Shown piece by piece: positions 5,719 through 45,532 of a stretch of 64,000 nt of DNA. A program made the translations under genes and the position numbers. How positions within the stretch are numbered: position 1 is the stretch's first letter; each line of letters starts with the position of its first letter. Origin of the DNA: Sedimenticola sp. (lineage in GTDB: Bacteria; Pseudomonadota; Gammaproteobacteria; Chromatiales; Chromatiaceae); assembly GCA_011051655.1 (NCBI GenBank), contig DRKS01000053.1, positions 11,790 to 75,789 of the forward strand. The letters are read 5' to 3'. A model generated the notes under the pieces. The model searched no databases. It was not told where the DNA came from and saw only the letters and a list, made by a program, of their open reading frames with translations.

Positions 5719-6330
5719 ATGCTGGAATCCTATCTCAATCTTTTCATCAAGGCGGTCTTCGTCGAGAACATGGCGCTGGCCTTTTTCCTCGGCATGTGCA
5801 CCTTCCTGGCGGTATCCAAGCGGGTGGAGACCGCCCTGGGCCTGGGCATAGCGGTGGTTACGGTGCAGACCATCACGGTGCCCATCAACAACCTCGTTTT
5901 TCAATACCTGCTCAGGGACGGCGCCTGGGGCTGGGCCGGCCTGCCCTTGCTGGACCTGAGCTTTCTCGGCATGGTGAGCTACATCGGCGTCATTGCCGCC
6001 GTGGTGCAGATCCTGGAGATGGTGCTGGACCGGTACTTTCCCGCGCTGCAACATGCGCTGGGGATCTTCCTGCCGCTGATCACCGTCAACTGCGCCATCC
6101 TCGGCGCCTCCCTCTTCATGGTGGAGCGGGACTACGGTTTCGGCGAGAGCCTGGTGTATGGCCTGGGCAGCGGGGCGGGGTGGGCGCTGGCCATCGTCAC
6201 CCTGGCGGCCATCCGCGAGCGTATGAAATACGCCGATCCGCCCAAGGGGCTGGAGGGGCTGGGCATCACCTTCATCACCGTGGGGCTGATGTCCCTGGGC
6301 TTCATGTCCTTCTCCGGCATCAAGTTGTAA
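5719..6330 (+). CDS. nqrE: Na+-NQR subunit E
   Basis: 203 aa with [20 protein letters not shown] and [10 protein letters not shown], the NqrE/RnfA signatures. Confidence 0.93.
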
Positions 6331-37345: not shown

Positions 37346-39010
37346 ATGGCGTGGGGCGCCATGTTCATCGGCCTGCTTGGAGGGCTGGCCCTTTTTCTGT
37401 TCGGCCTGGAGCAGATGGCCGAGGCGCTGAAGGCGGTGGCCGGCGAGCGGATGAAGGGGTTTCTCGCCCGTCTTACCGCAAACCGCTTCATGGGTGCTGT
37501 CACCGGGGCCTTCGTCACGGCGATCATTCAATCCTCCTCGGTGACCACGGTACTGGTGGTGGGCTTCATTTCCGCCGGCCTCATGTCTTTGGCCCAGTCC
37601 ATCGGCGTCATCATGGGCGCCAATATCGGCACCACCATTACCGCCCAGATCGTCGCCTTCAAGATCACCAAGGCCTCACTGGCCATGCTGGCGGTGGGTT
37701 TCGGCATGCTGTTCTTCTCCAAACAGGAAAAGATCATACTCTATGGCCGGGTGCTGATGGGGCTTGGCATGGTGTTTTTCGGCATGAGCGTGATGAGCGA
37801 CGCCATGAAGCCCCTGCACAGCTACCAGCCCTTTCTCGACTTCATGGTCCGCATGGAGCATCCGCTCATCGGCATCCTCGCCGCGGCGCTTTTCACCGGC
37901 CTGATCCAATCCTCATCCGCCACCACCGGCATCGTGGTCGTAATGGCCTCCCAGGGCTTCATCACCCTGCCCGCGGGTATCGCGCTGGCGCTGGGCGCCA
38001 ACATCGGCACCTGCGTGACCACCATCCTGGCCTCCATCGGCAAGCCCCGGGAGGCGGTCCGCGCCGGAGTGGCGCACATCCTGTTCAATGTCTTTGGGGT
38101 GCTGCTCTGGGTCGGCTTTATCGATCAACTGGCCCGGCTCTCCGCCTGGCTGTCACCGGCCTACGAAGGACTCAGCGGCGCCGCCAGGCTGGCCGCCGAG
38201 ACGCCGCGCCAGATCGCCAATGCCCACACCCTGTTCAATGTCGCCAACACCCTGGTTTTCATCGGATTCACGGGGCCGTTCACGCGGCTGGTGGAATGGC
38301 TGGTCCCCGACAAACCACTGGAAGAGATCCCCCGCATCAGCCCCAAGTTTCTGGATGAGGCCCTCATCGACACCCCCTCGCTGGCCCTGGATCGCACCCA
38401 CCTTGAGATTGCCCGCATGGGGCGGCGGGTGAGGGAGATGCTGCAACGAAGCATGCCGGCGATATTGAGCGGCGATCACCAGACCCTCAGGCGGATTGCG
38501 AAACTGGATGACGATGTGGATTTCCTGCATGGGCGGGTCATCACCTACCTGGCGCAGATCAGCAAGAAATCCCTGACGGAAACCCAGACGAGAAAATTCA
38601 CCGATCTCATGACCGCCGCCAACAATCTGGAGAATATCGGCGACGTCATAGAAACCGACCTGGTGGAGTTGGGGCACAAGCGTATCGACGAGGGCGTCGT
38701 CATCAGCCAAATGACCCAGGAGGTGCTGTTCCAGCTCCACCAGGCCGTTGCGGAGTCCATAGACCTGCTTCTCGACGCCCTGGAGGGGGACCGGGAGGCG
38801 GCGGAAAGGGTCATCGCCATGAAACAGCATATCGGCCGGCTGGCGGATGCGGCCGCCCTTCACGAGGCCAAGCGCCTGGCGGCGGAAGAGCCGAAGCGGC
38901 TGCAGGCCTACACCATCGAAACGTCCATTATCGAAAAGCTCAAGCGCATCTACTATTTCGCCAAGCGCACGGCCAGGGTCACGTTGCCGGCGGAGGAGAC
39001 GGCTGAGTGA
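37346..39010 (+). CDS. Na+/phosphate cotransporter family protein with C-terminal PhoU-like domains
   Basis: Duplicated QSSSVTT / QSSSATT NaPi-II motifs in the membrane part, with a helical PhoU-like tail; 554 aa. Confidence 0.9.
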   Translation: MAWGAMFIGLLGGLALFLFGLEQMAEALKAVAGERMKGFLARLTANRFMGAVTGAFVTAIIQSSSVTTVLVVGFISAGLMSLAQSIGVIMGANIGTTITAQIVAFKITKASLAMLAVGFGMLFFSKQEKIILYGRVLMGLGMVFFGMSVMSDAMKPLHSYQPFLDFMVRMEHPLIGILAAALFTGLIQSSSATTGIVVVMASQGFITLPAGIALALGANIGTCVTTILASIGKPREAVRAGVAHILFNVFGVLLWVGFIDQLARLSAWLSPAYEGLSGAARLAAETPRQIANAHTLFNVANTLVFIGFTGPFTRLVEWLVPDKPLEEIPRISPKFLDEALIDTPSLALDRTHLEIARMGRRVREMLQRSMPAILSGDHQTLRRIAKLDDDVDFLHGRVITYLAQISKKSLTETQTRKFTDLMTAANNLENIGDVIETDLVELGHKRIDEGVVISQMTQEVLFQLHQAVAESIDLLLDALEGDREAAERVIAMKQHIGRLADAAALHEAKRLAAEEPKRLQAYTIETSIIEKLKRIYYFAKRTARVTLPAEETAE

Positions 39011-39033
39011 TGAGTACCGAGTGTGGCGGAATA

Positions 39034-39378
39034 TTATAAAAAGGCGGGCATGGTGAAGCGCACGGCAATGGGAAGGACCATGCAAACGACAAAAATGAAA
39101 ATAGAGTTTCTCCGGGCGTTCTGGAACAGTGCATCGAGGGCGAAGACCCTCAGGGAAAGCAGCAAGGGAATGGCGCCTGCTATAAAAACCAGTTCGATGA
39201 TCTGGTCCGGACCCTGGGGACCGATGCCGCGGGATATCAAGGCGAACCACAGGGTGACCGGCGCCACGCTCAGCATCCAGTCCCAGTCAAACCATGTGTC
39301 TCTTTTGCGGGCGAAATACCAGGCCAGGGATGAAAGGGATATGATTGCAAGCACGGAGCTCAAAAACAGTATTGCCAT
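39034..39378 (-). CDS. Small hydrophobic membrane protein, unknown function
   Basis: 114 aa, 3-4 predicted TM helices, visibly lower GC than the flanks. No recognisable family. Confidence 0.5.
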   Translation of the reverse strand: MAILFLSSVLAIISLSSLAWYFARKRDTWFDWDWMLSVAPVTLWFALISRGIGPQGPDQIIELVFIAGAIPLLLSLRVFALDALFQNARRNSIFIFVVCMVLPIAVRFTMPAFL

Positions 39379-39446
39379 TTAATGACTCGAATTAGCGGGG
39401 GGACGGTGGTATACATATAAACATAAAAACAGAGATTGGCAATCCA

Positions 39447-41003
39447 ATGTTCAGAACCGCCGAGCTGGGGCGCAAGATATCCAAGGCCGAATTCAAAAAG
39501 CGCGAGATCCTGCTGCGCCAGGAGCTGCTACAGGCCCAGCAGGCCCTGCGCCAGGACGGCGGGTTTCCGGTGATCATCGTCTTCGCCGGCGTGGACGGCG
39601 CCGGCAAGGGGGCGACGGTCAATCTCCTCAACGAGTGGATGGACCCCCGCTGGCTGGTGACCCGCGCCTATGGGGAGCCGTCCCAGGAGGAGCGGGAGCG
39701 GCCGGAGTTCTGGCGCTACTGGCGTGACCTGCCGCCCAACGGCCGCATCGGCCTGTTCCTCAGCTGCTGGTATTCCAAGCCGGTGCTGGACCGGGTCTAC
39801 GGCAACATCAGCGAGGCGGAATTCGATGAGCGGCTGGACCGGATCGCCGCCTTTGAAAAGGCCCTTACCGATGACGGGGCGCTGATCCTGAAGTTCTGGA
39901 TGCACCTCAGCCGGGAGGCCCAGAAAAGGCGCCTCAAGGCCCTGGAAAAGGACCCCCTGCTGCAATGGCAGGTCACGGAGAAGGATTGGGACCACTGGCA
40001 TCTGTATGACCAGTTCATGCAGGCCGCCGAGCGCAATATCATGCGCACCAGTGTGGGCAGGGCGCCCTGGTCCATCGTGGAGGGCGCCGACGCCAACTAC
40101 CGGAGCCTGACCGTGGGCTGCGCCATCCGGGACGCCATTCTCAAGCGCCTGGAAGAGCGCCGGCTGGAAATCAAGCTCAAGGCCGAGCTGAAGAGCCAGG
40201 CGGGCGCCGCCGGGGCGCCTCCGGAACCGGATGAAGACGCCGCCGGGGCCGAGCCATGCCGGGACGATGCCCCGCTGACCATAGTCTCCACCCTGGACAT
40301 GTCGCAGCGCCTGACCAGGGCGGAGTACAAGGTGCAGTTGAAGCAGCTCCAGGGCAAGCTGAACCTGCTGCACCGCAAGGCCCTGGCCAAGGGCATATCC
40401 ACCCTGCTGGTGTTCGAGGGGCCGGACGCGGCGGGCAAGGGCGGCGCCATCCGCCGGCTCACCGCCGCCATGGAGGCCCGCAACTACCAGGTGCTGCCCT
40501 TCTCCGCGCCCACGGACGAGGAGCGGGCCCACCACTATCTCTGGCGTTTCTGGCGCCAGCTCTCCAGGGCCGGGCGGGTCACCATCTTCGACCGGAGCTG
40601 GTATGGCCGGGTGCTGGTGGAGCGGGTGGAGGGCTTTGCCACCGAGGACGAATGGATGCGGGCCTATGCCGAGATCAACGATTTCGAAAGCCAGTTGATC
40701 GAGCACGGCATGGTGTTGCTCAAGTTCTGGATTCACATCACCAAGGAGGAACAGCTGGCCCGCTTCAAGGCCCGCGAAGAGATCCCCCACAAGCGCTGGA
40801 AGCTGACCGACGAGGACTGGCGCAACCGGGAGAAATGGGACGACTACGAGCAGGCCGTCAACGACATGGTGGAAAGGACCAGCACCTCCAGGACGCCCTG
40901 GGTGCTGGTGGAGGGCAATGACAAGCCGTTTGCCCGGATCAAGGTGCTCAAGGCGGTGTGTGACCGGCTGGAAGAGGCGCTTGGAGGCGACCGGGAGGGA
41001 TAA
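39447..41003 (+). CDS. ppk2: Two-domain polyphosphate kinase 2 (class II; polyphosphate:AMP phosphotransferase type)
   Basis: Two PPK2 modules, each with a Walker A (GVDGAGKG and GPDAAGKG) followed by the WRFW/YWR and FDRSWY/SCWYS motifs; 518 aa. Confidence 0.92.
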   Translation: MFRTAELGRKISKAEFKKREILLRQELLQAQQALRQDGGFPVIIVFAGVDGAGKGATVNLLNEWMDPRWLVTRAYGEPSQEERERPEFWRYWRDLPPNGRIGLFLSCWYSKPVLDRVYGNISEAEFDERLDRIAAFEKALTDDGALILKFWMHLSREAQKRRLKALEKDPLLQWQVTEKDWDHWHLYDQFMQAAERNIMRTSVGRAPWSIVEGADANYRSLTVGCAIRDAILKRLEERRLEIKLKAELKSQAGAAGAPPEPDEDAAGAEPCRDDAPLTIVSTLDMSQRLTRAEYKVQLKQLQGKLNLLHRKALAKGISTLLVFEGPDAAGKGGAIRRLTAAMEARNYQVLPFSAPTDEERAHHYLWRFWRQLSRAGRVTIFDRSWYGRVLVERVEGFATEDEWMRAYAEINDFESQLIEHGMVLLKFWIHITKEEQLARFKAREEIPHKRWKLTDEDWRNREKWDDYEQAVNDMVERTSTSRTPWVLVEGNDKPFARIKVLKAVCDRLEEALGGDREG

Positions 41004-41443
41004 TGACCGAGGCGGAATACATAGAACAGCGTCTTGACGACCAGATCATTTGGTATGACCGCAAGAGCCAGTGGAATCAGCTTTGGTATAAGCGCCTGCG
41101 GGTGGTCGAGATCGTCTGCGCATGCAGCATTCCCTTCGTCCTCAGTTTCACTGCGGACGGCAAGGGCGTGATGGTGGGCCTCGCCGGCCTGTTCGGCGTC
41201 GTGGTGGCGGTGGTGTCCGGCGTTATCTCATTGTTCAAATTCGAGGAAAACTGGGTTTCCTATCGCGCCACCTGTGAAAAGCTGCAGCATGAGAAACTGC
41301 TTCACGCCACCGGGACCAGTCCCTATGACGGGGAGAACAATCTGCCCCTGCTGGTGCAGCGGGTGGAGGCCATCATTTCCAGGGAAGGGCTGGAATGGCA
41401 GCAGCACGTGGTGGCGAAAGAAGAGGGAGGCGGATCCGCCTGA
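41003..41443 (+). CDS. DUF4231 / SLATT-clan 2-TM protein
   Basis: EYIEQRLDDQIIWYDRKSQWNQLWYKRLRVVEIVCACSIPF, a second TM, then FKFEENWVSYRATCEKLQHEKLLH. This matches my recollection of the DUF4231 signature. The start overlaps the ppk2 stop (TAATG). Confidence 0.8.
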   Translation: MTEAEYIEQRLDDQIIWYDRKSQWNQLWYKRLRVVEIVCACSIPFVLSFTADGKGVMVGLAGLFGVVVAVVSGVISLFKFEENWVSYRATCEKLQHEKLLHATGTSPYDGENNLPLLVQRVEAIISREGLEWQQHVVAKEEGGGSA

Positions 41444-41499
41444 GCCGGGTTGCACGGCGCAGGCCCGTCAATACCGGCAATGGCTATTCGGATTTTTGC

Positions 41500-42810
41500 A
41501 TGAACGGCATTTTTATCAGTTATCGTCGTGAAGACTCGGAAGGTTTTGCCAGGAGCCTGTTCCAGAGCCTGACGGCGCACTATGGCGCCGACCAGGTCTT
41601 CATGGACGTGGAGGATATCGAGTTGGGGCTGGATTTCGTCGAGGCCATCGACAAAAGCCTCGGCGCCTGTGACGTGCTGCTGGTTCTGATAGGCAAAGAC
41701 TGGCTCAGCTGCACCAACGCCGAGGGCCGCAGGCGCCTGGACGATCCCGAGGACTTCGTCCGTATCGAAGTGGCCTCGGCGTTGCGCAGGAATATACGGG
41801 TGATACCGGTCCTGGTGCGCGGCGGGGTCATGCCGAAAGCGGAAGAGCTTCCAGAGGATTTGCAATTGCTCACGCGGCGCCAGGCCCTTGAGCTTCGGCA
41901 TGACCGCTGGAACTCGGACATCGAACGCCTGGAGGCGGCACTGGACAAAATGCTGGGCATTGTCCCTGACGGCCCCGCCCCCGCCAAAGCGCCGAAAGGG
42001 CCGCCCCTGCCCCCCGCTGAGGCCGGGCCGGCCAAGGCGGCCAAGCCCAAGAGAAAGAAGCTTTTCATTTTGGGAGCGGCGGCCGTTGTGGGGCTTCTGG
42101 CGGCGGGCCTGATCTGGATGCAGGTACCGGACCCCATGCCGGCAAGGCAACAGGGGCAGGTGTATGAGGCCAGCCCCGTTGCAAGGCCCGAGGCGCAACG
42201 GCCTGCGGAGCCTTTCCCTGAGCCGGCCGTGAAGCAGACGGCGCCGGCAAGGGCGCCGGAGCGCCCCCGCCGCCGGCCCGAACCTCCGGATGGCATGGTC
42301 ATGCAGGCGCAGGAACTGCTGACCGAACTGGGCTACGGCCCCGGCCCCGTGGACGGCCGGCCGGGTGCACAGACCAGCCGCGCCGTGCGGACCTTCCAGC
42401 AAGAGGTGGGCATGCAGCCCGACGGCCGGATTACAGAAGGCCTGATCGAGAGGCTGACCGAGGTCATGATCCAGCGCCAGGAGGCCGCGGCCGCTGGAGG
42501 AAGCGCCGTCGCGCTGGATATGTCCGGCACCTGGTATGACGACAAAGGGCTGTATTACGTCACGGTTCAGTCCGGCAATATGGTGCGCCAGGAGGCCTAT
42601 TTCACCCTGGGGGGCGCCTTTGTCGGAAGGGTGGAGGGGGTTCTGAATGGACACGTCCTGAACTACCGGTATGGCGCCTTCGATGGTTCCATGGGCGAGG
42701 GCCGGGGGGTGGTGTCCGAAGACGGCAATCACATGGAGTACGTGGTTACCAACCTGGTTACGGGCATACAGGAATCCGGCGTGTTGCACCGGAACCATTT
42801 GCCACATTAA
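41500..42810 (+). CDS. Membrane-anchored TIR-domain protein with periplasmic PG_binding_1-like domain and an unassigned C-terminal domain
   Basis: N-terminal TIR_2-type domain: IFISYRREDSEGFARSL, DVLLVLIGKDWL and DFVRIEVASAL, with the candidate catalytic Glu present. Then a single TM (LFILGAAAVVGLLAAGLIWM) and a Pro-rich linker. Next is AQELLTELGYGPGPVDGRPGAQTSRAVRTFQQEVGMQPDGRI (PG-binding-like). The last ~110 aa are a Gly/Tyr/Val-rich domain. Confidence 0.85.
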   Translation: MNGIFISYRREDSEGFARSLFQSLTAHYGADQVFMDVEDIELGLDFVEAIDKSLGACDVLLVLIGKDWLSCTNAEGRRRLDDPEDFVRIEVASALRRNIRVIPVLVRGGVMPKAEELPEDLQLLTRRQALELRHDRWNSDIERLEAALDKMLGIVPDGPAPAKAPKGPPLPPAEAGPAKAAKPKRKKLFILGAAAVVGLLAAGLIWMQVPDPMPARQQGQVYEASPVARPEAQRPAEPFPEPAVKQTAPARAPERPRRRPEPPDGMVMQAQELLTELGYGPGPVDGRPGAQTSRAVRTFQQEVGMQPDGRITEGLIERLTEVMIQRQEAAAAGGSAVALDMSGTWYDDKGLYYVTVQSGNMVRQEAYFTLGGAFVGRVEGVLNGHVLNYRYGAFDGSMGEGRGVVSEDGNHMEYVVTNLVTGIQESGVLHRNHLPH

Positions 42811-43053
42811 CCCGCATTTCTCACCAGGCGGACCCAGTTAATTGAGAAATTTATGAAATTCAATGTAGTTGGCCTCATAAGGTGATGGCGGTTAATTTAT
42901 ACTCTGTCCTATTTGGTTTTTGGGGCAAGCTGGCTTCGCATCTTGAACGATCAGCCTTGAACCATAGCTACGGCTATGCTTCGGCGGCCGATCGTCCAAC
43001 CTGCTTCGCCAGCTTGCCCCAAAAATCCAAATCCTGGTGAGAAATGCGGGTTA
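42808..43053. mobile_element. MITE-like nonautonomous element (~246 bp) with 21-bp perfect terminal inverted repeats
   Basis: TAACCCGCATTTCTCACCAGG at 42808..42828 and its exact reverse complement at 43033..43053. There is also an inner ~40-bp imperfect inverted repeat (ATTTGGTTTTTGGGGCAAGCTGGC...). No ORF. The left end includes the TIR-gene stop codon, and the right end abuts the yhcB RBS. Confidence 0.7.
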
Positions 43054-43060
43054 GGAGGCG

Positions 43061-43702
43061 ATGATGAATTTAAAAGCAATTCCCCTGGATGCCGGCATGC
43101 TCGTTTTCGCTGCGGGCATTGTTGCCGGAGGCCTGGTGCTGATGCTGATCATGTTGGCCGGCCGCCGGCGTGACAAAGGGGCGGCGGATGAGCTGGTGAA
43201 GATCAAGCGGGAACTGGAACAACTCAAGGATGAGTTTCAGCTCTACCGCGACAGCGTGGGCCGGCATTTCAGCAAAACAGCGGAGCTGGTCCATTCCATG
43301 ACGGAGAGCTACCGTTCCGTCTATCAGCATCTGGCCCAGGGCGCCCAGGATCTTTGTGATGACAAGGTTACGAAACTCGTCGTGCAATTCGGCGAATCAA
43401 GGCTTGTCGAGTGGGCAAAAGAGCCTGTTGCGGGCGCCGGGGTCTCGCCGGCTCAAACCAAAGACGAAGTGGCCGGATACATAAAGCTCAGGAAGCCGCT
43501 GCAGGTGAAGCGTGCGATGAGCAGAGAGAATGGCCATGAGGCCGCCGGACGCGCACCGGCACCGGCCGCAACCGCCTCTTTCGATAAGCCGGAAGAAGCC
43601 AAGGCCGCTGAGGCCCCCGACGCTGATCCGGCTCCTGTGCAGGGCTCCTCGGCCGTATTGCGCGAAATGGAAAGGGAGGTGCAGGCTCACGGTTCCCGCT
43701 AG
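43061..43702 (+). CDS. yhcB: YhcB/ZapG-family (DUF1043) inner-membrane protein with extended C-terminus
   Basis: N-terminal TM, then ELEQLKDEFQLYRDSVGRHFSKTAELVHSMTESYRSVYQHLAQGA, which is YhcB-like. Confidence 0.75.
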   Translation: MMNLKAIPLDAGMLVFAAGIVAGGLVLMLIMLAGRRRDKGAADELVKIKRELEQLKDEFQLYRDSVGRHFSKTAELVHSMTESYRSVYQHLAQGAQDLCDDKVTKLVVQFGESRLVEWAKEPVAGAGVSPAQTKDEVAGYIKLRKPLQVKRAMSRENGHEAAGRAPAPAATASFDKPEEAKAAEAPDADPAPVQGSSAVLREMEREVQAHGSR

Positions 43703-43708
43703 CCTCCG

Positions 43709-45532
43709 TCAACGCTCCTGCCGCCCGTAGAGCGAGGCATAGAGGCCATTGCTGCCGATGAGCTCATCATGCCGCCCCTCTTCCACGATGCGGCCGTCCT
43801 CGAACACCAGCACCCGGTCCGCCTGTTTCACCGCGCTCAGCCGGTGAGCGATGATGATGGTGGTGCGGCCGTGCAGGAACTTCTGCAGGGCGCTGTGCAG
43901 GCGGGCCTCGGTGGTGGTGTCCAGGGCCGAGGTGGCCTCGTCCAGAATGACGATCCTGGGCTCGGACAGCACCATGCGGGCCACCGCCAGGCGCTGGCGC
44001 TGGCCGCCGGAGAGACGGATGCCGAAGCGTCCGATGAGGGTGTCCAGGCCCTCGTCCAGTTCGCGGATGGTTTCGCTCAACTGGGCGATGTCCAGCGCCT
44101 GCCAGAGCTTCTCCTCCGGGATCTCCCGTCCCAGGGTCAGGTTCTGGCGAATGCTGTCGTTGAACAGGGCGGGGTGCTGCAGCACGGTGGCCACGTGATC
44201 CCGCACCACATCCATGCCGATTTCGCTCACCGGGACGCCGCCGAAACAGACCTGCCCGGACTGGGGCGGATAGAGCCCGAGCAGCACCTGCACCAGGGTG
44301 GTCTTGCCGCCCCCGCTGGCCCCCACCAGGGCCACCTTCTCGCCGCTGTGGATCTCCAGGGAGACGTGGTCGAGCACCAGTGGCCCGTCGCCGTAGGCGA
44401 AGCAGACATCCTCCAGGCGTATGGAGGTGGTCGGCCGGTTGGCGAAGGGGTTGCGCTTGTGGCGGTAGGCCGGTTCCAGGTTCATCCGGATGAGCTGGTT
44501 GATGCGCCCCAGGGCCGCCTGGGCCCCGTTGTAGGAGTACTGGATGGCCAGCACCTCCTGCACCGGGTTCATCATGAACCAGAGATAGGCGAATACCGCC
44601 AGCATCTGGCCGATGCTGAGATCGGAATAGAGCACCATGAACATGCTGACGGCCCGGAAGATGTCGAAGCCGAACAGGAAGACGACGAAGGACAGCCGGG
44701 CCGCCGCGTCGCTCTTCCAGGTGAAGGCGGCGGAGCTTTTGCGAATCTCCCCCGCCCGGTCGATGATGCGGCGGATATAGTGGCGCTCCCGGTTGCTGGC
44801 CCGGATCTGCTGGATGGCGTCCAGGGTCTCCGCCAGGGACTCCTGAAAGGCCTGGTAGGCGCTGTTCTCCCGCCGTTTCAGCTCCTTGACCTTGTGCCCG
44901 AATACGGTGGTGACGTAGATGACCACGGGATTGAGAACCAGGATGAACAGGGCCAGCCGCCAGTTCATCCACAGCAGCACGATGGCGGTGCCGACAATGC
45001 TGAGCACCGCCACCAGGAACTTGCTGGTGGCGACGCCGACGAACTGATCCACCGCATCCAGGTCGGTCACCAGGTGGGAGGCCACGGTGCCGCTGCCCAG
45101 GGTTTCGTACTCCGCCATGGAGACCCGCTCCAGCCGCAGCAGCAGGGCCTTGCGCATGCGGTAGATCACGTCCTTGGCGATGAGAGTGAACTGGCGCATC
45201 TGCCACACCCCCAGGACCAGGGCGATGAGGCGCAGCACCAGGGTCAGGGCCAGGATGGCCAGGATGTAAAGCACCGGACCGTGCCAGCTCTCCGGAAACA
45301 GCCGGTCCATGACGGCCACGGAGATCCCGGGCTGGTGGAGCAGCACCTCGTCCACCAGCAGGGGGATGAGCAGCGGGATAGGCACGCTGACCACGGCGCC
45401 GAGGATGGCGATGATATTGGCCAGCACCAGCTCCCGCCTGTGGCGCAGCACCATGTCGGTAAGCTCCCGCCAAGTGTAATCCCTGTTGCGGATGCGGGGG
45501 GGGTGAAATGGTGATTCTGCTGCGTCGGACAT
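43709..45532 (-). CDS. ABC exporter, fused permease/ATPase (MsbA/multidrug type)
   Basis: Six-TM N-domain. Walker A GASGGGKTT, signature LSGGQRQR and Walker B ILDEATSALD. Confidence 0.93.
   Translation of the reverse strand: MSDAAESPFHPPRIRNRDYTWRELTDMVLRHRRELVLANIIAILGAVVSVPIPLLIPLLVDEVLLHQPGISVAVMDRLFPESWHGPVLYILAILALTLVLRLIALVLGVWQMRQFTLIAKDVIYRMRKALLLRLERVSMAEYETLGSGTVASHLVTDLDAVDQFVGVATSKFLVAVLSIVGTAIVLLWMNWRLALFILVLNPVVIYVTTVFGHKVKELKRRENSAYQAFQESLAETLDAIQQIRASNRERHYIRRIIDRAGEIRKSSAAFTWKSDAAARLSFVVFLFGFDIFRAVSMFMVLYSDLSIGQMLAVFAYLWFMMNPVQEVLAIQYSYNGAQAALGRINQLIRMNLEPAYRHKRNPFANRPTTSIRLEDVCFAYGDGPLVLDHVSLEIHSGEKVALVGASGGGKTTLVQVLLGLYPPQSGQVCFGGVPVSEIGMDVVRDHVATVLQHPALFNDSIRQNLTLGREIPEEKLWQALDIAQLSETIRELDEGLDTLIGRFGIRLSGGQRQRLAVARMVLSEPRIVILDEATSALDTTTEARLHSALQKFLHGRTTIIIAHRLSAVKQADRVLVFEDGRIVEEGRHDELIGSNGLYASLYGRQER

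Follow-up and report, generated by a model that had tools for sequence, protein, structure and literature searches.

A SARM1-like TIR protein with a predicted periplasmic ectodomain and its SLATT neighbour: a candidate signalling module resembling type VII Thoeris

Two adjacent genes on contig DRKS01000053.1 of a Sedimenticola sp. assembly (GCA_011051655.1), a contig of hydrothermal-vent metagenome origin, encode a small SLATT/DUF4231 membrane protein and, 56 nt further on and on the same strand, a TIR protein that is predicted to span the inner membrane once and to expose a peptidoglycan-binding domain and a small β-barrel to the periplasm. We analysed them within a 64-kb stretch of this contig, referred to here as the window, and our reading, held with a little more belief than doubt, is that the pair forms a TIR-to-SLATT membrane signalling module, similar to type VII Thoeris and built around a receptor-type TIR protein. 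An initial annotation of the window had proposed these open reading frames (ORFs), assigning to the first a SLATT/DUF4231 identity with two transmembrane (TM) helices, and to the second TIR_2 and PG_binding_1 domains, a conserved catalytic glutamate, an N-in/C-out topology and a C-terminal part of about 110 residues belonging to no recognised family. All of this was upheld by the profile searches, alignments and models described below, the topology as a prediction; the features are collected in Table 1.

Table 1. Features of the locus, with positions in the window
Feature	Position	Strand	Basis or remark
PPK2 gene, ppk2 (two-domain, polyphosphate:AMP phosphotransferase)	39447..41003	+	PF03976, E 2.3e-139; TIGR03708, 698 bits
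SLATT_1/DUF4231 gene, 146 aa	41003..41443	+	PF14015, PF18181, NF033634; two TM helices
TIR protein ORF, 436 aa	41395/41500..42810	+	ATG at 41500 taken, the start in all homologues
Predicted cytoplasmic TIR_2 domain, SARM1-like, aa 1–150	41500..41949	+	PF13676, E 1.2e-14
Pro/Ala/Lys linker, single TM helix and Pro-rich, predicted periplasmic spacer	41950..42297	+	Hydropathy
Predicted periplasmic PG_binding_1 domain, aa 267–319	42298..42456	+	PF01471, E 8.8e-13
C-terminal eight-stranded antiparallel β-barrel, aa about 343–431	42526..42792	+	AlphaFold2 (AF2), Foldseek
Palindromic intergenic element, 246 nt	42808..43053		Between TIR stop codon and zapG-like gene

The two proteins

The PF13676 match of the TIR protein covers residues 4–144 (55.3 bits; cut-off 28), and PF08937 gave no match in this protein. 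A profile of 23 full-length members of the TIR protein family was searched against all PDB sequences; up to an E-value of 1 its TIR matches were confined to SARM1 and the nematode orthologue tir-1 (best E 3e-13), with no solved bacterial TIR within that limit. The window domain is 29% identical to the TIR domain of human SARM1 over 141 residues (E 5e-15). Counted along the printed alignment, E90 of the motif DFVRIE (codon 41767–41769) stands opposite the catalytic E642 of SARM1 (DWVHKE), Y8, R9 and R10 stand opposite Y568, R569 and R570, and an aromatic residue, F86, precedes E90. Since E90, Y8, R9 and R10 are also invariant among the 23 family members, the domain is very likely an active, NAD+-cleaving TIR. 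SARM1 is its best match among solved structures, and the two share the catalytic glutamate, the Y-R-R motif and an aromatic residue just ahead of that glutamate, but the TIR domain is all that the two proteins have in common: the ARM–SAM–TIR architecture of SARM1 orthologues is absent here, and a TM helix, a PG_binding_1 domain and a β-barrel are found instead of ARM and SAM domains. SARM1 forms an octamer that is gated by the ratio of nicotinamide mononucleotide to NAD+. A survey from 2020 reported that no bacterial SARM1 homologues were found (PMC7075850), which makes this bacterial TIR group relevant to the question of where SARM1 originated.

The TIR protein has no N-terminal signal peptide. 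Its single TM helix lies at about residues 186–207 (nt 42055–42120), where hydropathy peaks at 2.43 in the windows at residues 186–193, and is preceded by the stretch KAAKPKRKK; lysines and arginines number six on the N-terminal side against one on the C-terminal side. By the positive-inside rule, this distribution leads to a heuristic assignment as a single-pass inner-membrane protein with its N-terminus inside and its C-terminus outside, such that the TIR domain would be cytoplasmic and the PG_binding_1 domain and barrel periplasmic.

The PG_binding_1 domain (48.7 bits against PF01471; cut-off 23) was modelled as a three-helix fold with a predicted local distance difference test score (pLDDT) of about 95, and Foldseek matched it to the peptidoglycan-binding domain of Pseudomonas aeruginosa SltB3 (5anz, 5ao8), at a root-mean-square deviation of 0.8 Å and 41–42% identity. 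When 17 family members were compared with Pfam, the last ~110 residues matched nothing in any of them, yet this part is conserved in the family with the motif GTWYD..G..Y.I.Q.G. In the AF2 model of the peptidoglycan-binding domain and C-terminus (mean pLDDT 92.3), eight antiparallel strands follow the three-helix domain, with GTWYD at the start of the barrel. When searched against the PDB, the barrel retrieved zebavidin (E 3.7e-4), avidin, nitrobindin, fatty-acid-binding proteins, lipocalins and the Cap15 barrel, with moderate TM-scores (0.5–0.58 on the target). The model therefore supports a fold class, that of small avidin/calycin-like ligand-binding barrels, and no specific family.

The product of the upstream gene matches PF14015 (DUF4231; E 3.8e-20, 72.7 bits, cut-off 24.7), PF18181 (SLATT_1; E 1.2e-12, 48.3 bits, cut-off 26.3) and NCBIfam NF033634 (E 1.3e-38, 132 bits, cut-off 41). 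Hydropathy peaks at residues 31–50 and 53–80 point to a TM hairpin with helices at about 31–50 and 55–78, and the AF2 model (pLDDT 77) consists of three long helices, 3–49, 55–103 and 113–142. Twenty-four columns of the family alignment are invariant, including R10, W17, Y18, R88, E122 and W132; of basic residues, R10 and R88 are thus invariant, and K21, K30 and R120 are nearly so. The N-terminal helix and the C-terminal helices, conserved and partly basic, are assigned to the cytoplasmic side. No relative was retrieved when the SLATT profile was compared with solved structures, and a Foldseek search with the model returned nothing below E 0.5. The protein is a predicted membrane-perforating effector or receiver; a role as membrane effector was predicted for SLATT domains by Burroughs et al. 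in 2015, according to later papers that cite them.

Phage records with SLATT_1 homologues number 34, and most of them are Staphylococcus and Streptococcus prophages or satellites. The SLATT protein of Staphylococcus phage X2 is 40% identical to the window protein over its whole length (E 2e-30), and its gene lies in a three-gene block (AY954968.1; L176, 1738–3333) that encodes a bPH_3-SHOCT protein, the DUF4231/SLATT protein and a ThsB_TIR protein. On a plasmid of Chondrinema litorale (NZ_CP111046.1; L177, 2281–3423), an Amidase_3 gene directly precedes a DUF4231/SLATT gene with no TIR gene near, a layout reminiscent of a holin–endolysin pair.

Recurrence of the SLATT–TIR pairing

Family context was taken from 12 exact-protein look-ups, and ten loci of the full-length family were compared. 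A SLATT_1 gene adjoins the TIR gene in six: the window locus, L083 (which ends at a contig end), L167, L001, L168, where it lies 3′ of the TIR gene rather than 5′, and L171, whose TIR protein is 38% identical. In the other four (L085, L086, L169 and L170), SLATT_1 is absent within 4–5 kb. The window, L167 and L001, at least, share a junction with an ABC-transporter gene and an M23-peptidase gene; the first four loci are thus not independent of one another, and independent support for the pairing comes from about three lineages. Approached from the other side, all three sampled SLATT homologues on long contigs have TIR_2 genes near, two of them immediately adjacent. When 160 loci of the wider class of TIR proteins were taken without selection, about a dozen (~8%) proved to have a SLATT gene within a few kilobases, as judged with a SLATT hidden Markov model, in tandem, convergent or divergent orientation and in some cases as fused double-SLATT ORFs. 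In short, the sampled SLATT genes have TIR neighbours, and this class of TIR has SLATT only sometimes.

Pairwise identities of the TIR and SLATT proteins co-vary across loci (r = 0.84), a correlation to which shared ancestry contributes. Chance adjacency of the two genes was rejected in view of the reordered L168, the distant L171 and the three reverse look-ups. The functional link between SLATT and TIR drawn in the initial annotation is well founded in this respect, as the association recurs with altered gene order and orientation and TIR genes lie beside or close to the sampled homologues of SLATT; conservation of the two genes as a pair, which had also been expected, holds for six of the ten family loci, but is not obligatory.

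In a further locus (L174, 611–6644; JGI Ga0315338_1000030), a single SLATT_1 gene is flanked by three genes for SARM1-like TIR-TM proteins whose C-terminal parts differ: one is multi-TM, one carries a GTW barrel without a peptidoglycan-binding domain, and one has two TM helices. This arrangement looks like several sensors that would feed one common effector, and it resembles, by analogy, the several ThsB genes per effector in Thoeris. An Amidase_3 gene lies just upstream of the cluster.

Several loci show minor peculiarities of their own. Tandem double-SLATT ORFs lie directly 5′ of TIR-TM genes in a myxobacterial locus (L078, 3984–6017) and in an unclassified metagenome contig (L144, 1947–3767). 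In L168, a LOG-family gene (PF03641, 155 aa; 5813–6280), a family which we take to be a member of the SLOG superfamily, is convergent to the SLATT gene and follows it immediately. In the SLATT-less L169 (371–2919; GCA_975966095.1), a gene for a patatin-like phospholipase, which may be an alternative effector, lies directly 5′ of the TIR gene.

The ectodomain as a candidate sensor module

A search of 1.84 billion representative proteins with the barrel returned only 70 clusters, and the barrel is C-terminal in almost all of the matches listed. It also occurs on TIR proteins and in small stand-alone proteins, and seven of ten matches that were scanned are Hanks-type Ser/Thr kinases. One of these, P0293 (747 aa), has the order kinase, TM helix, PG_binding_1 and barrel, which is the ectodomain cassette of the window protein; the barrel, without the full cassette, ends at least six further Hanks-type kinases (P0248, P0262, P0274, P0282, P0292 and P0296). 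A PEGA domain precedes the barrel in P0292. We suggest that the unannotated barrel merits a family definition of its own. Because the same cassette sits on a Hanks-type kinase, the combination of PG_binding_1 domain and barrel looks like a receptor sensor module. The idea of a periplasmic sensor, put forward in the initial annotation, gains from this kinase and from sister proteins that have PASTA domains or a TolB-like propeller in the same place, but it remains an inference.

Of the 120 proteins most closely related to the TIR protein, 26 have a PG_binding_1 domain and 21 have PASTA domains, with FGE-sulfatase or unassigned C-terminal parts in others. Sister TIR-TM proteins that are linked to SLATT have an ectodomain of three PASTA domains or a PD40 (TolB-like) propeller instead. 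Genome and metagenome scans yielded 161 complete ORFs of the TIR class, and in 133 of them the TIR domain is followed by one TM helix or more. A metagenome scan with the full alignment returned mostly TIR-only relatives. TIR-TM proteins with PASTA, propeller or other ectodomains gave a minimum of more than 3000 matches in one search. By its domain order, the window protein is one member of a large, uncharacterised TIR–TM–ectodomain group, the layout of which parallels that of wall-sensing receptor kinases. No description of a TIR protein with a peptidoglycan-binding or PASTA ectodomain was found in the literature, of which coverage was partial.

The ectodomain is only about 50% identical between the window protein and that of L167, compared with 81% for the TIR domain and 82% for the flanking ABC transporter. 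Such fast divergence fits a fast-evolving sensor.

Two known receptor classes invite comparison. Hanks-type transmembrane Ser/Thr kinases with PASTA domains (PknB, PrkC and StkP) likewise join an output domain in the cytoplasm, by way of one TM helix, to an ectodomain that binds murein; the window protein differs in that its predicted output is an NAD+-cleaving TIR domain, not a kinase, and in that its putative partner is SLATT, not a set of phosphorylation substrates. Animal Toll-like and IL-1 receptors, as described in the 2020 survey (PMC7075850), are also single-pass proteins with an ectodomain for the ligand and a cytoplasmic TIR domain. In the window protein, however, the TIR domain is N-terminal, so that the orientation is opposite, the ectodomains are unrelated, and the TIR domain is a predicted SARM1-type enzyme. 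The resemblance to Toll-like receptors is one of layout, not of descent.

Relation to type VII Thoeris

The coupling of TIR to SLATT is already known: a prediction of 2015 was followed by experimental verification in 2025, when Yirmiya et al. named it type VII Thoeris (bioRxiv 10.64898/2025.12.03.692087, December 2025). According to that study, TIR+SLATT operons protect Escherichia coli and Bacillus subtilis from phages; their TIRs make canonical cyclic ADP-ribose (cADPR) on infection; cADPR added to cells causes SLATT-dependent toxicity; and the SLATT effector, ThsH, responds to canonical cADPR only and, in the model given, forms an oligomer that spans the membrane and has basic pockets. Thoeris types are defined there by their effector, and the TIRs of type VII belong to several TIR clusters with no relation to one another. 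A further report describes cADPR as a major product of the SARM1 TIR domain and uses type VII Thoeris as a specific cADPR reporter (bioRxiv 10.64898/2026.04.20.719644, April 2026). For the proposal that a diffusible TIR product acts on SLATT, type VII Thoeris now provides a direct precedent from experiment.

The window SLATT protein is very probably of the ThsH kind, as it is 40% identical to the SLATT protein of phage X2 and the X2 ThsB TIR is close to that of the verified B. licheniformis type VII system (37% identity, E 5e-26). The pair has in common with type VII Thoeris the two-gene layout of TIR and SLATT, the catalytic glutamate, a SLATT protein of the DUF4231/SLATT_1 family and the expected logic, in which a nucleotide from the TIR would open SLATT or assemble it in the membrane. 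Verified ThsB proteins are small TIRs of several ThsB-type clusters, for which the material consulted mentions no membrane anchor; in contrast, the window TIR protein, 436 residues long, is predicted to sit in the membrane with part of its domains in the periplasm, falls into the SARM1-like FISYRR class of TIR_2, and is encoded outside a defence island. The Macro-TM effector of type II Thoeris, the SLATT and 2TM effectors of cyclic oligonucleotide-based antiphage signalling systems (CBASS), and the SLATT prediction itself, as presented in the sources consulted, resemble the pair in that a sensor enzyme produces a nucleotide which switches on a small effector in the membrane. In those systems the signal enzyme is described as cytosolic and senses infection within the cell, whereas the window enzyme is predicted to be anchored in the membrane with an extracytoplasmic domain. 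What is new here is the receptor-type architecture, the SARM1-like class of TIR, a sensor cassette in common with kinases, and the identification of the C-terminal barrel.

Discussion

If the pair is a TIR-to-SLATT module, we envisage the following course. A periplasmic cue would change the clustering or conformation of the ectodomain, the likeliest cue being the state of the murein bound by the peptidoglycan-binding domain, or else a ligand that binds the barrel. It could be provided by a phage that enters or lyses the cell, by wall damage of another kind or by a small ligand, and envelope or murein sensing by the ectodomain is plausible. The cytoplasmic TIR domains would thereby be brought together. 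TIR NADases need self-association to build their active site. Once assembled, the TIR domains would cleave NAD+ and release a cyclic ADP-ribose-type nucleotide, for which canonical cADPR is our best guess because SARM1 makes cADPR and the verified type VII SLATT effector responds to nothing else. This nucleotide, or a local loss of NAD+, would activate SLATT at its cytoplasmic face, such that SLATT oligomerises and breaches the inner membrane, and the cell would stop growing or die. Where relatives have no SLATT, the TIR protein is probably active by itself, through consumption of NAD+.

A number of observations weigh against this reading. Four of the six SLATT-positive loci, as judged by their shared junction, are orthologous copies in one lineage, and four family members together with ~90% of the wider TIR-TM group have no SLATT gene nearby. 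The predicted topology is heuristic, deriving from hydropathy and the positive-inside rule alone. Of the features that characterise type VII Thoeris, a TIR gene next to a SLATT gene is present here, and kinship with verified ThsB TIRs and residence in a defence island are not: in BLASTP comparisons with two verified type VII TIR domains, the window TIR gave E 24 with one and E 0.009 over 24 residues with the other, which amounts to no useful pairwise similarity, and the connection of the window SLATT protein to ThsH is indirect, through phage X2. No entries with a FISYRR-type TIR, a peptidoglycan-binding domain or PASTA domains appear in the examined part of the type VII study's tables. PADLOC returned weak, partial matches to ThsB (aa 4–63), PDC-S66 and SAVED-TIR, and no system model. 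No recognisable defence genes surround any of the ten family loci, where the neighbours are transport, secretion, respiratory and metabolic genes. Finally, the reading is built from genes and models, with activity, signal molecule, trigger and phenotype all predicted.

The absence of defence genes, a fixed site with vertical inheritance and a shift in base composition that is only modest keep two other explanations alive. In the first, which we consider somewhat unlikely, the TIR protein would be a self-contained sensor and effector: damage to the envelope or wall would activate it, and depletion of NAD+ alone would arrest the cell. SLATT would then not be required as receiver of a signal, and could be dispensable, amplify the response or be a partner under regulation of its own. 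The four family loci devoid of SLATT and its rarity near unselected TIR-TM genes (about 8% of 160) are consistent with this, as are the mode of action of SARM1, the nearest solved relative, which works through NAD+ depletion, and the patatin-like phospholipase gene that takes the place of SLATT upstream of the TIR gene in L169. Independence of the two proteins is harder to square with the SLATT_1 homologues, those sampled having TIR genes adjacent or nearby, or with an adjacency that persists through changes in gene order and orientation; and the single SLATT gene for three TIR-TM genes in L174 is better explained by a common receiver than by an unrelated neighbour.

In the second, the module would be a housekeeping or stress pathway that responds to the state of the cell wall and has no anti-phage role, either through a gated SLATT channel for which the TIR nucleotide would be the second messenger, or through regulated death or dormancy after envelope injury of any cause. 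We regard this as unlikely. All bacterial TIR+SLATT pairs studied experimentally, as far as the sources consulted report, act in phage defence, and in prophages and satellites of Staphylococcus and Streptococcus the SLATT_1 homologues lie in accessory regions, as is typical of defence cargo; moreover, the family is patchy among related genomes rather than universal, and its ectodomain diverges much faster than neighbouring genes. Yet the ectodomain cassette is common to Hanks-type kinases, sister TIR proteins carry PASTA domains, the pair has been passed on stably and vertically at a site flanked by ABC-transporter and M23-peptidase genes and free of defence genes, and these TIRs were not picked up in the examined part of a survey based on defence islands.

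A third explanation, in which SLATT/DUF4231 would serve murein hydrolysis as a membrane protein similar to holins, with the TIR protein as just a wall-anchored regulator, is highly improbable: it rests on two observations, the Amidase_3 genes directly upstream of the TIR-less Chondrinema DUF4231 gene and close to the L174 cluster, whereas no murein hydrolase gene adjoins the pair in the window or at the other family loci, the M23 peptidase gene is two genes away, divergent, and present also where the context of the pair differs, and the TIR domain keeps a complete catalytic site.

The TIR-to-SLATT reading can be taken further, to a version that we put forward tentatively and whose chances fall well short of even. 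The pair would then be the first Thoeris-like system in which the TIR protein serves as an extracytoplasmic receptor, sensing damage to the sacculus, or its remodelling, in the periplasm and converting it into a cADPR-type signal that would open a SLATT pore; the causes could include endolysins, the tail lysins of an entering phage, amidases of type VI systems and lysozyme, each detected before the cytoplasm is reached. The sister TIR-TM proteins would be bacterial ‘Toll-like’ receptors, and possibly the stock from which the SARM1 TIR domain arose.

To our knowledge, little has been settled about the way in which the TIR proteins of Thoeris detect infection. A TIR protein with an explicit, swappable periplasmic sensor would offer a concrete input, namely a murein-binding domain and a small barrel that also occur on receptor kinases. 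If true, bacterial TIR signalling would extend from the cytoplasm to surveillance of the envelope, and the theme of PASTA and peptidoglycan-binding receptors would acquire a second type of output, an NAD+-derived nucleotide. The group would also supply the close bacterial relatives of the SARM1 TIR domain that escaped the 2020 survey (PMC7075850). Should the pair turn out to be merely an ordinary type VII Thoeris system with a membrane anchor, the gain would be smaller: a new member with an unusual TIR.

Neighbouring genes, base composition and the palindromic element

The stop codon of ppk2 and the start codon of the SLATT gene share one base (TAATG), an overlap already noted in the initial annotation and confirmed in the sequence, which suggests that ppk2 and the pair are co-transcribed in this organism. 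PPK2 is missing beside the pair at the other loci, the sole exception being one unlinked copy in L171, and because it is not conserved next to the pair, ppk2 was rejected as a third component. That copy, in an otherwise distant locus, lies ~1.8 kb away. Other phosphate-related genes were noted near the pair, the set comprising a Na/Pi cotransporter with PhoU, PHO4, PhoU_div and PPK2 (window 37346–41003; L167 1457–3424 and 8231–9305; L171 769–1707); those of the window and L167 probably reflect common ancestry. Between the Na/Pi cotransporter gene and ppk2 lies a hydrophobic ORF of 114 residues (39034–39378, minus strand) with no family match; its GC content of 0.536 is the minimum of the neighbourhood, and it is annotated as a gene in the public contig.

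The view that the pair is an acquired module is weakly supported. Its lower GC content than the flanks holds in part, in that GC content at third codon positions (GC3) is 0.755 and 0.778 in the SLATT and TIR genes and 0.89–0.91 in ppk2 and the ABC gene, but ordinary neighbours are equally low (Usp, 0.736; zapG-like gene, 0.682) and the whole-gene GC content of the TIR gene, 0.644, equals that of the flanks. The junction formed by the ABC transporter and the M23 peptidase is common to relatives of the window locus, with the ABC proteins of the window and L167 being 82% identical, and from this comparison the pair is vertically and stably inherited at a fixed chromosomal site. Recent horizontal acquisition is thus unsupported, as the GC3 shift extends to ordinary neighbours, the junction recurs in relatives and no defence genes lie beside the pair. 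Promoter and terminator scans of the locus gave results at chance level only, and an Rfam search of 38900–43800 found no family, apart from one chance miRNA match.

The palindromic element downstream of the TIR gene is bounded by a perfect 21-nt terminal inverted repeat (42808–42828 and 43033–43053), the left arm of which begins at the TIR stop codon, and contains an imperfect inner inverted repeat of 45 nt; its predicted RNA fold has an energy of −132.5 kcal/mol (z = −11.8). Rfam gave no match for the 246-nt sequence. The proposal of an element like a miniature inverted-repeat transposable element (MITE) at this position is correct as to the terminal inverted repeats, but dispersed copies of the repeat or of the element were found neither in the 64-kb window nor in the other loci compared, the same contig aside, and as only one copy is known the MITE label is unverified. 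The orthologous junction in L167 has neither the palindromic element nor the zapG-like gene, and the element is probably not part of the TIR/SLATT system.

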